64,000 nucleotides of DNA from contig OX597829.1 of NCBI GenBank assembly GCA_951406725.2, positions 24,304,001 to 24,368,000 of the forward strand. Direction: 5' to 3'. This document shows, piece by piece, positions 35,413-45,122 of this stretch. The notes beneath the pieces were generated by a model. It had not been told where the DNA came from, did not search any database, and saw only the letters and a program-made list of their open reading frames with translations. How positions within the stretch are numbered: position 1 is the stretch's first letter; each line of letters begins with the position of its first letter. Made by a program: the position numbers and the translations under genes. Origin of the DNA: Octopus vulgaris. Its lineage: Eukaryota.

Positions 35413-36361
35413 CCCATATGTGGGCCTACCAAATGAACAAAAGGACCACTTTTTTTATGATATTATTCTGCAGGCTACCTCAAAGACAAGTGACAATGAT
35501 CTCATCTTCATGGCTAGTGATTTCAATGGGCATGTCAGACAGCAGCCCAGCATCTACCATGGTGTATATGGGGAGGGGGCATGGAATTGGTTCCCAAAAG
35601 GAAGAGGGGGTAAGGCTACTGGAGCTCTGTAATGCAAATAACTTAATGATCTACAACACCAACTTCAGGAAGATGGCCAGCCACCTGATAACCTACCTAT
35701 CAGGTGACTTTGTTAGCCAGATTGATCACATTCTTACCAGACAGCAAGCTACATGGTCTCTCCTAAATACAAAGACCCTCCCTGGTGAAGAATGTACCCT
35801 GCCTAACATAGACTAGTCACTAGTGACTTTACACTTCAGGTCAGAAGGATGCCAAGAAGCAGACCAATCTGGAAAAAAAGATTTAGAAGCTTAAGGACCC
35901 TCCATATGGTCAGAGATTTAGGGACATCCTAATCGAGAAATTTAATGAGAGGTAGGAGGAGATACAGACTTGTGACATAGAGGGCAACTGGGAATTCTTG
36001 TGGGAAAGCTTGCAGAGAGTCATAGACCATATCTGCAGCTGGTACAAAGTCCCATCAAGACCTAGGGTGATGTGGTCCATTAGAGCAAAGAAACAGGCCT
36101 AGAAGGCCTTGAAGACTGTGAGTGGCGGGGAACTGTATCAGAGAGCAAGAAGGGAAGCTAAGAGACAGGTATGTCTAGCCAAAGGTGGAGCAGAAAAAAA
36201 GTTTGCTTATGTTCAGCAACATGAAGACCAAAGACTTGAATTGTTTCAGATTGCAAGACAGCATGTGAGAGAAAATTGTGATGTCATAGGAGAGAAATGT
36301 ATCAGCATGGATGAGAGTGCACTTGCATTTAATGCTTTTGCAAAGAAAGAGGGTTGGAGAT
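35405..36361 (+). pseudogene. RTE-clade LINE, AP endonuclease and linker region
   Basis: [46 protein letters not shown]; frameshifted. Confidence 0.88.
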
Positions 36362-36641
36362 TGTGGGATGACGTCAGCAGCCGGGTGCGTTGACCGGAAG
36401 CTGGGGCAACCGGAAGGGGTCAGCCATCAGGCGTGCACAGGGAGCGGGGAATTGCGCCCTTTCCAACGTGGGTCGTGGAGGTGACAAGATGTGTGAGGAC
36501 GTCGCTAAGGGTTTGGGCTAGCAGCTGCTATCGTTAGTGTTCGGGTCGGGGCTGTGTGGAAGGACTAGTCACCATTGGAGGGTCTCCGTCACTAAGAAGA
36601 GAAGGTAGGTGCCTCTATATTCAAATCGCGCACACACTACA
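36362..36641 (+). repeat. 5' LTR
   Basis: TGTGGGATGACGTCA...CACACTACA; matches 39943-40236. Confidence 0.95.
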
Positions 36642-36653
36642 AGCTATTTCGGC
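36642..36653 (+). promoter_or_regulatory. Non-canonical primer-binding site complementary to tRNA-Phe nt 1-12
   Basis: AGCTATTTCGGC is the reverse complement of GCCGAAATAGCT, the 5' end of metazoan tRNA-Phe(GAA) as recalled from vertebrate sequences. Confidence 0.7.
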
Positions 36654-36685
36654 CGTTCTTAAACATTTACATTTTTTTCAACACG

Positions 36686-37114
36686 ATGTCTGCAAAAATT
36701 AGGACCGCCAGTGACGTCGTCAGACCTTTTAATGGCGGCGAAGGCGATGTAGTGGCCTGGATTCGCAAAATCAGGCTGGTGGCAAGACTGCAGGGCATAA
36801 GCGACGTGGCGAGTCTTATGGCGCTGTATTTAGAAGGGAGCGCGTTAACGCTCTACCTAGAGATGACGGTGACGGAGGCGCGTAAAGACGGACGACATCC
36901 CAAGAAAGAGGTACAGAAGCTTACCGTGCAACGAGAGCGGCCGTTCTCAGGACGGTGTTTTAGATGCCAGGGACCGCACATGGCGCGGGACTGTACGCAG
37001 CCGGGGCCCGTTTACTATCGATGCAGGCAGACAGGGCACATTGCCCGTGATTGCGACCAGGGAAACGACCGCGGGGAAGTTGCTGCCTCTCGAACTTTCT
37101 CCTCAAACGAGTAG
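36686..37114 (+). CDS. gag: Gag (short, probably internally deleted) with zinc knuckles
   Basis: CFRCQGPHMARDC and YYRCRQTGHIARDC knuckles. Confidence 0.85.
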   Translation: MSAKIRTASDVVRPFNGGEGDVVAWIRKIRLVARLQGISDVASLMALYLEGSALTLYLEMTVTEARKDGRHPKKEVQKLTVQRERPFSGRCFRCQGPHMARDCTQPGPVYYRCRQTGHIARDCDQGNDRGEVAASRTFSSNE

Positions 37115-39764
37115 AGGTGCTATTGGAGTCGCTGCCATTGATTGACGTGGAGGCCAAGGGGGAGACGTTCAAGGCCCTTGTGGATATGGGCTGTACGACC
37201 ACCCTGGTGACTTCGAGGGTGACGAAGGAATGGAACGGGGTGAGTAGTGTCCGGGCGGTCGACGGCAGCGAAATCCGTTGCAGAGGCAGCAGCAAGGTAG
37301 AGATAGTGGTGCGCAGCGCGACGCTAAGGCTGCAGGCAATTGTGGCCGAACGCATGATAGATGGAGTTGATGTGGTGATGGGGATGGACGCCATCAACTG
37401 CCTCGGTGGCGTCAGTGTTGTGGGAAATGAGGTCACGTTCGGAAGCGTGGGGGCGTCGTGCACTGCGAGTCGGGATCGCCAGAGAGAGCAGAGCCCCGCG
37501 AGGGACTGCGCCGCTTACACCATCGAGGACAAAGACTTTCAGGCGGCGTTCGATGGTCAGCGGTGGAAGATAGAGTGGCGATGGAAGGACGAGCTCCTGA
37601 CGCTGGAGAACAGAGTGAGCTGTTACCAGCATACTCTGAAAGGCCACGCCAGGGTCGAGTTTGAAGACGAGGTGGAGAGGTGGATCGAGGAAGGGGTCCT
37701 TGTCCCTTGGAAGGAGGAGGTAGCGGGCAGAGTGCTACCCCTGATGGCGGTGGTGCAGCCTACGAAGGGAAAAGTCAAACCGGTGCTGGACTTCAGGGAG
37801 CTAAACCAGCACATATCATGTCACACGGGAGGTGAGGAGACAGACGTTTGTGGCGAGGCATTACGTAAATGGAGACAGTCGACTGAGGCAGCGACGATTG
37901 TCGACTTGAGATCGGCATACTTGCAGCTCCATGTGAGCGACAAACTGTGGCGATATCAGCTGGTGCGGTACAAGGGCCGGACGTACTGTCTAACCAGGCT
38001 GGGTTTCGGGCTGAATTCCGCTCCGAAGATCATGCGGCAGTGCTTAGGTCCATCCTAGGGAAAGACGGCAAGATTAGAAAGGCCACCAGCTCCTACATTG
38101 ACGACATTTTGGTGGACGAAACTGTAGTGCCAGCCGACGAGGTAGTTAGACATCTGGAGAAGTTCGGACTGATTGCTAAGCCACCGGAGTCGATTGAAGG
38201 GGGAGCCGCGCTGGGGCTGAAGCTGCGAAGAGATGGATCAGGTGAATTGGTGTTCCAGAGAGGAAAGGAAATCCCAGAGCTGAGTTCCAGCGTCAGCAGG
38301 AGAGAGCTGTTCTCGGTGTGTGGGAAGTTGGTCGGTCACTACCCGATCGCTGGATGGCTGCGCACGGCGTGTAGTTACACCAAGAGACGAGCAGAAGGAG
38401 AGAGGTGGGGCGACAAGGTGGGAGAAGGGACGGTGGCGATGATGCAGGAGATCCTAGAGAGGACAAGAGCGGAAGACCCGGTCAGGGGGAACTGGTACGT
38501 GCCCAAGACGAAATGCGGGACTGTCTGGTGTGATGCTAGCGGTATAGCGATAGGGGTGGTGTTGGCAATCGAAGGCACTGCGGTGGAGGACGCGGCCTGG
38601 CTTCGGAAAGCAGATGATTTCAACCACATCAATGTCGCCGAATTAGACGCGCTGCTGAAAGGGGTGAACTTGGCCTTGAAATGGGGGCTGCGCACGATTG
38701 AAATCCGGACGGATTTGGCCACTGTGCTTGGCTGGGTAGGATCGGTGATCACCGGTGACAGGAGAGTGCGGACGAAATGTGCTGCGGAGATGTTAGTGAA
38801 GCGCCATCTAGGAGTTCTAGGTGAATTTATCACCGAGTTCGGACTGAAGCTGAACGTGGTTTTTGTGCCTTCGGAGAAAAACAGGGCGGACGTACTGACC
38901 AGGGTGAAAAGAGCGTGGTTGGAAGAACCGGAGGAGGCCCGGAAGGGGATAGCTGCGGTGTGTCGGTTGGATGACTCTGAACTGAAGAAACTGCATGCTA
39001 TGCATCACCTGGGTGTGGACAGGACCCTGTATCTGGCAAAAAAAAATTGATGCTGACGTCACTAGGAGAAGCGTCTGGAAGGTGGTCGGGAGCTGCGACA
39101 GGTGTCAGTCCATCGACCCTGCTCCGTGTGGGCATGAACAGGAAGCCTTTCCGTGGAGCAGAACTGGAAAAGGCTAGCTGTGGATGTGACACACTACCGT
39201 CAGCGAATGTACCTCTCCATGGTCGACTGCGGGCCGGGCCGGCTGGCCATTTGGAGGGAGTTGAGATCGGGCATTGCTGACGAGATCGCGCAGATCCTGA
39301 ACGGGATATTTTTAGAGAGAGGTCCCGTAGAAGAACTACTGATGGACAACGGGGCGGCGTTTCGTTCGGAAGCATTGAGGACTATGCTTGATCGGTGGAA
39401 TGTGCGACGCTTGTTCAGAGCAGCGTATAGGCCGAGCGGTAACGGGATCGTGGAGAGGCACCATCGGACAGTCAAGGCCATAGCGGAAAGAGGGCACATT
39501 TCGCCGCTTGAAGCAGTTTTTTGGTACAACTTGTCTCCCCGATCCGGACAAGCTGAGGAATCTGTGCCGCAGAGAGCTGTGTTCAAATATGAATGGAGGC
39601 ACCCGAGCAAAGCGCCGGAGGATCACGAGGAAGAGAAGGGACCCATTCGCATGAAAATAGGGGAGGAAGTCTGGGTCAAGCCACCAAAGGCGCGCTGTAC
39701 GTCTCAATGGAGCAGGGGAATGGTGACGGCGATCAATTCCAGAAGCAACGTATCCGTAGAATGA
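37051..39764 (+). pseudogene. pol: Pol polyprotein (protease, RT, RNase H, integrase), frameshifted
   Basis: ALVDMG protease (degenerate D-T/S-G), PVLDFRELN, FGLNSAP, YIDD, WCDASG..AEL, H..H..CDRC, VDV..MDNG..NGIVER; frame changes near 38040, 39047 and 39150. Confidence 0.92.
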
Positions 39765-39942
39765 ATACCACGACACGTCTTGGACCTTCGCAGGATTGTT
39801 GCTTCAACGGACGATGATTCTGGAGAGGGGGAGAACGAGGAGCCCAGCTTGAGAAGATCTCGACGAGCAAGGTGCTCTCCCGGTTGGATGGTGGACTACA
39901 ACATGGAGCGGAGAGATTGTGATCTTTAAGATCAGGGTGGCG

Positions 39943-40236
39943 TGTGGGATGACGTCAGCAGCTGGACGTCAGCAGCCGGGTGCGTTGACCGGAAGCTGGG
40001 GCAACCGGAAGGGGTCAGCCATCAGGTGTGTGCAGGGAGCGGGGAATTGCGCCCTTTCCAACGTGGGTCGTGGAGGTGACAAGATGTGTGAGGACGTCGC
40101 TAAGGGTTTGGGCTAGCAGCTGCTATCATTAGTGTTCGGGTCGGGGCTGTGTGGAAGGACTAGTCACCATTGGAGGGTCTCCGTCACTAAGAAGAGAAGG
40201 TAGGTGCCTCTATATTCAAATCGCGCACACACTACA
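39943..40236 (+). repeat. 3' LTR
   Basis: About 4 substitutions plus a 14-bp tandem duplication relative to the 5' LTR; preceded by a weak purine-rich tract. Confidence 0.95.
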
Positions 40237-40867
40237 GATTTAGAAGCTTAAGGACCCTCCATATGGTCAGAGATTTAGGGACATCCTAATCGAGAAATTT
40301 AATGAGAGGTAGGAGGAGCTACAGACTTGTGACATAGAGGGCAACTGGGAATTCTTGTGGGAAAGCTTGCAGAGAGTCATAGACCATATCTGCAGCTGGT
40401 ACAAAGTCCCATCAAGACCTAGGGTGATGTGGTCCATTAGAGCAAAGAAACAGGCCTAGAAGGCCTTGAAGACTGTGGGTGGCGGGGAACTGTATCAGAT
40501 AGCAAGAAGGGAAGCTAAGAGACAGGTATGTCTAGCCAAAGGCGGAGCAGAAAAAAAGTTTGCTTATGTTCAGCAACATGAAGACCAAAGACTTGAATTG
40601 TTTCAGATTGCAAGACAGCGTGTGAGAGAAAATTGTGATGTCATAGGAGAGAAATGTATCAGCATGGATGAGGGTGCACTTGCATTTAATGCTTTTGCAA
40701 AGAAAGAGGCTTGGAGATGCCATTATGGAAGACTGCTGAATGTGGAGAATGAACAGGTGGCAGAGAGTCTACCAAATATGGACCAAATTGACAGTACCTT
40801 GATAGCTAAAACAATTAAGGGTATGAAGACAGGAAAAGCCCCACACCCATCAGGAGTCACCACAGAG
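40237..40867 (+). pseudogene. RTE LINE continuation; 40237-40718 duplicates 35880-36361
   Basis: Direct alignment at offset 4357; continues AWRCHYGRLLNVEN..MKTGKAPHPSG. Confidence 0.9.
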
Positions 40868-44799: not shown

Positions 44800-45122
44800 A
44801 GACTCCGCCGGTTACGACGACGAGGGTCCCAGCTGATACGATCAACGGAACAGCTTGCTCGTGAAATTAACGTGCAAATGGCTGAGCATTCCACAGACAC
44901 GTGTACCCTTAACGTAGTTCTCGGGGATAATCAGCGTGACACAGAGAGTGACAAGGCTGACCCTTTGAAATACAAGTACAACTCATTTTTGCCAGCTGAG
45001 TGGACTGGAGCAACGTGAAATAAAGTGTCTTGCTCAAGGACACAACGCGTCACCGGGAATCGAACTCACAACCTTACGATCATGAGTCGAATGCCCTAAC
45101 CACTAAGCCACGCGACCTCACA
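44800..45122 (-). mobile_element. Full-length tRNA-derived SINE (related copies near 47710, 53180, 59835)
   Basis: Head gtggcttagtggttagggc..gagttcgattcccgg with A and B boxes; CpGs retained. Confidence 0.85.

Follow-up and report, generated by a model that had tools for sequence, protein, structure and literature searches.

The accessible text of PMC6317226 recognises three types of primer for LTR elements: an entire tRNA, half of one that has been cut within its anticodon arm, or a self-primer. Retroviruses, Ty1, Ty3 and most Gypsy and BEL elements use canonical 3'-CCA priming, in which a host tRNA acts as primer and the primer-binding site, or PBS, is restored from that tRNA. Copia, Ty5, Osser, Bryco, Bianca and fungal Copia/Helenus elements instead use a 3'-truncated tRNA, that is, a 5' piece, and a PBS without TGG that pairs with the anticodon arm; the available portions of the reports place this half-tRNA priming in Copia lineages only (PMC6317226, PMC10886601), with anticodon-loop priming extending to fungal Copia (PMC10886601). 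Tf1/sushi elements (Tf1, Tf2, Tj1, Tcn1 and TAR) are described as self-primed: the very 5' end of the element's transcript pairs with an 11–12-nt PBS beside the LTR, and a cut is needed at the duplex end (PMC7175516, PMC4600332, PMC6317226).

Here we describe an LTR retrotransposon at positions 36362–40236 of a 64,000-nucleotide stretch (hereafter the window) of the repeat-rich 2.8 Gb genome of Octopus vulgaris. Its PBS, AGCTATTTCGGC (36642–36653), is the exact complement of nt 1–12 of host tRNA-Phe(GAA). The element resembles canonical systems in its predicted use of a host tRNA, from which the PBS would be rebuilt, but the opposite tRNA end is involved, TGG is absent and a free 3'-OH must first be made. 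Half-tRNA priming is alike in that the primer is a 5' tRNA piece (inferred here from the PBS borders and from dead-end copies) and the PBS lacks TGG. However, a scan of the host tRNA-Phe showed that the site complements nt 1–12 and not the anticodon arm, and RT-RNase H precedes integrase, whereas in copia integrase precedes RT. The pairing of an RNA's very 5' end with a short PBS beside the LTR recalls Tf1/sushi, but the predicted primer is a host tRNA acting in trans, and a search of the LTR for the complement expected of a self-primer found none.

Our literature search, which had Repbase reports and subscription journals outside its scope, turned up no PBS that pairs with the 5' end of a tRNA. 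As an exact string, the 12-mer occurred in the searchable text of only three papers on tRNA modification or methyltransferases, and the accessible parts of PMC12471100, PMC12859917, PMC6238403, PMC6934838, PMC3587641, PMC4600332 and PMC8556966 contain no matching PBS. We conclude that a PBS directed at a tRNA 5' end is real and lineage-wide and represents an apparently undescribed, new form of tRNA-fragment priming, in which the target is firm and the cut inferred. PBS finders limited to tRNA 3' ends would miss such a site, which marks a large, divergent retroelement lineage with hundreds of copies in the host genome.

Organisation of the element

All parts of the element lie on the forward strand. 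LTR-pair and target-duplication analysis delimited a 280-bp 5' LTR with TG...CA ends (36362–36641) and a 294-bp 3' LTR (39943–40236); the two are 98.5% identical, and inside the 3' LTR lies a 14-nt duplication for which the family is polymorphic. The PBS follows the 5' LTR with zero spacer. Downstream lie a gag with CCHC knuckles (36686–37114), shorter than the gag of relatives, and a pol (37051–39764) encoding protease, RT (YIDD), DUF7047, RNase H and integrase. By Pfam the order is PR-RT-RH-IN, with matches to the CCHC knuckles, a protease, DUF7047, an RNase H-like domain and an integrase. The pol of the window copy is broken into three open frames (37051–38058, 37887–39050 and 39138–39764), and the copy is ~280 bp shorter than a 4150-bp copy. 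Within the gag–pol overlap, a GGGAAAC heptamer (37060–37066) is a likely −1 frameshift site; the heptamer is visible by eye in many relatives and, across the lineage, precedes a likely stem at this overlap, a candidate −1 frameshift signal. A TGATC-loop-GATCA hairpin and then a G-rich polypurine tract (39920–39942) adjoin the 3' LTR. This hairpin motif precedes the polypurine tract in 27/77 relatives from metagenomes, and another of these loci, L088, carries a different stem at the corresponding position.

The position of the LTR end was fixed by the family. Among 30 LTR loci, 5-bp target duplications flank the LTR ends in 13/13 solo LTRs and 5/5 paired full elements. This fixes the LTR boundary exactly and puts the first base of the 12-mer at +1. 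In the window copy, a direct duplication of 482 bp takes the place of the 5-bp one: a flank that by eye is a LINE-like fragment (35880–36361) is repeated 3' of the 3' LTR (40237–40718), with 7/482 differences between its copies. Because this divergence equals that between the LTRs (~1.5%), the duplication likely arose at insertion, by aberrant integration.

The site complements the mature 5' end of host tRNA-Phe

A preliminary description of this locus had noted that no TGG follows the 5' LTR, and had predicted from the start of metazoan tRNA-Phe(GAA) that the next 12 bases are a complement ending exactly at tRNA-Phe nucleotide 1. Both points hold in the host genome. The 12-mer lies directly 3' of the LTR end and its complement matches host tRNA-Phe(GAA) nt 1–12 at 12/12 positions. 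Extended by three bases, this complement occurs 94 times in the genome against 0 for a control, and every one of the 22 loci inspected among them is a tRNA-Phe(GAA) gene starting with that sequence. The duplex comprises nt 1–12 exactly because the following tRNA bases are unable to pair with the LTR's final CA. Longer primers were also considered; further 15-mer matches were tRNA genes without an adjoining LTR (10/10). One tandem array (G000:C18:30147732-30157146) holds ~46 matches to the tRNA-Phe start at 200-bp spacing.

Two other host tRNAs, tRNA-Lys(UUU) and tRNA-Thr(UGU), share nt 1–3 and 7–12 with tRNA-Phe and differ at nt 4–6. A search with wildcards at these three positions returned 400 host sites versus 54 for a control. 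The first 100 sites carried the Phe triplet in 74 cases, its CpG-decay form TTT in 7 and the Lys or Thr form in none, and we rejected tRNA-Lys and tRNA-Thr as partners in this host. The match also stops at the mature end of the tRNA. Across 60 host sites, base 13 is A, G, T or C in 35, 10, 10 and 5 cases, while tRNA nt −1 is A in 12/12 genes; a variable base facing a constant one means that the match is to the mature 5' end and rules out pairing with the 5' leader. Annealing of the PBS to folded tRNA-Phe is predicted to gain 9–15 kcal/mol, a value computed on a modelled fold that departs from the true cloverleaf. In 14 elements bearing the Phe triplet (TTC), nt 1–12 is the sole stretch of host tRNA-Phe with a complement at a fixed place. 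A second, Ty3-like binding site was rejected, as only scattered 8–9-nt matches to nt 33–41 occur, in 5/14 elements.

The site is kept while flanking sequences diverge

CA followed by the 12-mer occurs at 287 sites in the host genome versus 14 for a control. Among 30 close copies, the window's own included, the 12-mer is exact in 27 and has one change in 3. To keep the motif from guiding the choice, we searched with a distant gag and viewed the upstream sequence of 30 loci from 150 matches; the 12-mer was exact in 25, changed at one base in 4 and absent from 1 (L250). When 60 host sites were fetched, the gag of this clade followed in 55, and the upstream DNA fell into 8 LTR groups.

Distant relatives carry the same site. 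We fetched 77 metagenome loci by Pol alignment (31–57% identical to the query) and found AGCTAT-NNN-GGC on the sense strand of 38 (37 after CA) and on the antisense strand of none, with ~1 expected per strand; many loci without the motif are partial contigs. Where a gag start and upstream DNA were both present, the motif occurred in 37/39 loci, a set for which some gag queries came from motif-bearing loci. Gag identity among motif-bearing relatives falls as low as 23%. Information drops to ~0.4 bit at base 13 of the metagenome sites; the last conserved base is base 12, which faces tRNA nt 1. The two exceptions are L108, which is cut inside the site, and L126, which has two changes. The changes in L126 (L126:1169 region) fall in the otherwise fixed half of the site, and this element might use another tRNA. 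The preliminary description had suggested testing whether the 12-mer persists while its flanks diverge, as it does in gag-picked family copies (25/30 exact) and in distant relatives (37/39); a canonical TGG PBS was sought in both sets and none was seen.

The 12-nt length and zero spacer resemble Tf1 (PMC7175516) and would fit self-priming of the Tf1 type or a primer supplied by the 3' end of the element itself. In one of eight elements (L089), the LTR does pair with the PBS better than most shuffled sequences (11/200 as good). In the other seven, however, the best LTR–PBS duplex is no better than shuffles (92–190/200 as good), and these duplexes reach −6 to −10 kcal/mol versus −19 to −20 kcal/mol for the full complement. 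No antisense copy of the motif exists in the 77 metagenome loci, and the site is constant while the LTRs are unrelated. On the shuffle comparison and the missing antisense copies we rejected both forms of self-pairing, which we regard as extremely improbable. As the preliminary description had remarked in arguing against Tf1-type self-priming, the LTR contains no complement of the 12-mer.

A variable triplet faces the acceptor stem

Only the bases facing tRNA nt 4–6, in the acceptor stem, vary among the metagenome relatives. The triplet in 32 distinct sites is TTC (14), CTA (7), CGC (6), CAC (3) or CCC (2). Acceptor-stem nt 4–6 are likewise not uniform among eukaryotic tRNA-Phe genes. A Gag tree was built from 35 rows, with 13 others excluded because their frames were short; on it the triplet changes no fewer than 8 times, where the minimum would be 4, although it is more clustered than in shuffles. 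Sister elements L089 (TTC) and L111 (CGC) differ in triplet at 72% Gag identity, yet TTC elements with Gag identity as low as 23% have the same one. Pairs of elements in the same record agree in 7/8 cases. A CTA element, L107, is present in annelid metagenome runs, and its site shows no alternative letter in four runs from four studies. This pattern fits a site that tracks the tRNA of its host, with the host match itself seen in one host. Scanning 53 metagenome loci for tRNA genes and searching viral contigs for relatives returned none of either, and a text search for tRNA starts of the variant kinds yielded no useful match.

Dead-end copies stop at the far border of the site

Five integrated dead-end copies (L227/L326, L329, L334/L356, L338/L357 and L360) contain an LTR end and exactly the 12 bases, followed by antisense element sequence. 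L227/L326 was one of 74 fetched motif sites, and the other four came from searches that used first its junction and later the one in L334. The donor in four copies corresponds to window position 38637, at the best internal look-alike of tRNA nt 1–12 (9/12; 38637–38648, within the region for RNase H); for L329 the donor is a U3 site of only weak likeness. As their LTR ends differ, the copies are likely separate events. L356 starts with a whole LTR and PBS, and TG..CA ends with 5-bp target duplications delimit both L356 and L326, so the rearrangement preceded integration. The simplest reading is a mis-annealing to element RNA of plus-strand strong-stop DNA, whose 3' end complements tRNA nt 1. 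Four of the five copies are joined inside a 6-base homology, which limits the proof to no carry-over past base 12, and such a terminus fits any primer beginning at that base.

The site might instead bind tRNA-Phe for packaging, dimer bridging or translation control, with priming elsewhere or at a shorter 3' end (nt 10–11, with AG trimmed by integrase). Such a role is compatible with the sequence, and the conserved hairpin before the polypurine tract could be counted in its favour. We consider it distinctly improbable: the site adjoins the LTR precisely where a primer must end, the dead-end copies stop at its far border, and the 14 elements scanned share no further tRNA-Phe complement at a constant position.

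A 5' fragment of tRNA-Phe as the probable primer

Beyond the observed complementarity, its borders at the LTR end and tRNA nt 1, its conservation and the dead-end stops at that border, the sequences argue that a 5' part of the tRNA is very probably the primer by some route. We lean towards a specific version, in which a 12-nt 5' piece of tRNA-Phe would prime minus-strand DNA after a cut by the element's own RNase H. Mature tRNA-Phe would open within the particle and anneal through its nt 1–12 to the PBS, at the expense of the acceptor and D stems. The tRNA would then be cut between nt 12 and 13, at the duplex end, and RT would extend the resulting 3'-OH directly into the LTR's terminal A. Plus-strand strong-stop DNA would copy the entire primer and run off at nt 1, by which the 12-nt PBS would be rebuilt, and rewritten to the host's tRNA, in every cycle. 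A 5' tRNA-Phe fragment as minus-strand primer is one of the routes that the preliminary description had proposed, next to priming from an internal 2'-OH; the proposal gains support from family copies without a TGG PBS, a conserved 12-mer and a host tRNA-Phe with the predicted 5' end.

As for the cut, we give the element's RNase H slightly better than an even chance. It is favoured by the precedent of Tf1, whose RNase H cuts its own RNA between nt 11 and 12 of the equivalent duplex according to the accessible text of PMC7175516, by the same border in unrelated hosts, and by D-E-D-D residues that are invariant in 42/42 homologues. Conservation of these residues would be needed anyway and is no proof of RNA–RNA cutting. 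The Tf1 cut requires additional RNA structure, and no conserved structure like it was found in the elements examined.

A host nuclease could alternatively make the 12-nt fragment, before packaging or after annealing, which would then be used as the primer. This fits all of the DNA evidence equally well, and copia-type half-tRNA primers are also 5' tRNA pieces (PMC6317226, PMC10886601). But the tRNA fragments covered in the accessible part of one review measure 16–35 nt (PMC7515703), the nt 12/13 position lies in the D stem, and the same border in very different hosts suggests that the cut is set by the duplex. We therefore hold a host nuclease to be possible but rather unlikely. For copia-type half-tRNA primers, RNase P has been proposed as the maker.

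Finally, there may be no cut: intact tRNA-Phe would anneal and RT would prime from the 2'-OH of nt 12, yielding branched RNA–DNA as in retrons. The same 12-nt PBS and plus-strand end would be expected, and the RT is very divergent. Its fold, however, is that of a retroviral/LTR-type RT-RNase H, and 2'-OH priming is, to our knowledge, confined to retron RTs, leaving this route improbable.

If priming by a cut 5' fragment is correct, it would be a fourth primer type for LTR elements, combining features of half-tRNA priming and self-priming, and could plausibly connect tRNA priming with self-priming in evolution. Predicted from it are a new activity that cuts the tRNA D stem on an RNA–RNA duplex, and a 12-nt RNA on strong-stop DNA.

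Lineage placement

The preliminary description had called the element Gypsy, a label that our comparisons did not bear out. Likenesses to Ty3/Gypsy (Metaviridae) include gag-pol, TG..CA LTRs, a 5-bp duplication, a CX2CX4HX4C knuckle and a related integrase (~65 bits), and the element has the PR-RT-RH-IN order between TG..CA LTRs with 4–6 bp duplications by which Ty3/Gypsy is recognised. Its RT and RNase H lie at a great distance from those of conventional Ty3/Gypsy. Of 42 homologues, none matches PF17917/PF17919, the Gypsy models for RT-RNase H (RVT_1 matches weakly), and the GPY/F motif is absent from the integrase of all 42. On 29 host Gypsy loci, the clade's RT profile scores 22–28 bits, its RNase H profile gives no score and its integrase profile reaches 67 bits. 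In a small RT tree (31 rows, 5 left out), 16 DUF7047 RTs fall on one side (SH-aLRT 93) and 14 conventional RTs on the other (94), with one broken BEL row and a long-branch warning. When solved structures were searched by profile, retroviral integrases came first and no Ty3 RT appeared among the top 60. The Gypsy label is therefore doubtful, the DUF7047-bearing Pol appearing to lie outside the sampled Gypsy RTs.

PF05380 (Peptidase_A17) matches 0/42 homologues, and the profile search that scored the host Gypsy loci gives no score for the two host BEL relics; BEL is represented by a single row in the RT tree. Fold searches retrieved only retroviral and caulimoviral RTs at 10–19% identity, which does not place the lineage. 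The atlas look-alikes of the RT-RNase H region of P0001 (residues 160–625) are unnamed Euglenozoa clusters and RVT_1-only clusters, not Gypsy, which offers no more than a lead, and its RNase H motifs by eye recall DIRS and BEL. Troyka/Kuafuorterviruses, as far as the excerpts of PMC12440569 and PMC11673190 describe them, are likewise a divergent LTR lineage of aquatic animals with the same domain order and no GPY/F. They differ in having CG..CG ends, 3-bp duplications, CX2CX8-10HX4C and xADD, whereas we find TG..CA, 5 bp, CX2CX4HX4C and YIDD. Troyka had been suggested by a 3-base match at the window's flanks and is excluded by the TG..CA ends and 5-bp duplications. The accessible text of mollusc and annelid surveys (PMC6238403, PMC8556966) yielded no MolGy or PolGy name matching the clade.

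Named homologues come from molluscs and crustaceans, the closest being from Argonauta; the names recorded are Argonauta, Petrolisthes, Oratosquilla, Aplysia, Trinorchestia and Sycon. A sister group with DUF7047 in a longer single frame (~1400 aa; P0215, P0218, P0223, P0225, P0232 and P0270) has named members from the sponge Sycon. The broadest formulation, which we put forward tentatively and as somewhat short of probable, is of an unrecognised lineage outside Gypsy, BEL, Copia and Troyka that spans sponges to cephalopods, annelids and crustaceans and has a primer of a fourth type: the first 12 nt of host tRNA-Phe would be cut off by its RNase H, and the site would be rewritten per host in each cycle.

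Two minor observations concern the host genome. The 3' LTRs of L045 (G000:C15:19332596) and L047 (G000:C15:19371898) lie 39 kb apart and have a common right flank, which suggests a segmental duplication that took in an element. In the window, ARAGORN calls a tRNA-Met on the reverse strand (45046–45118) that overlaps a dispersed repeat and is probably SINE-derived.
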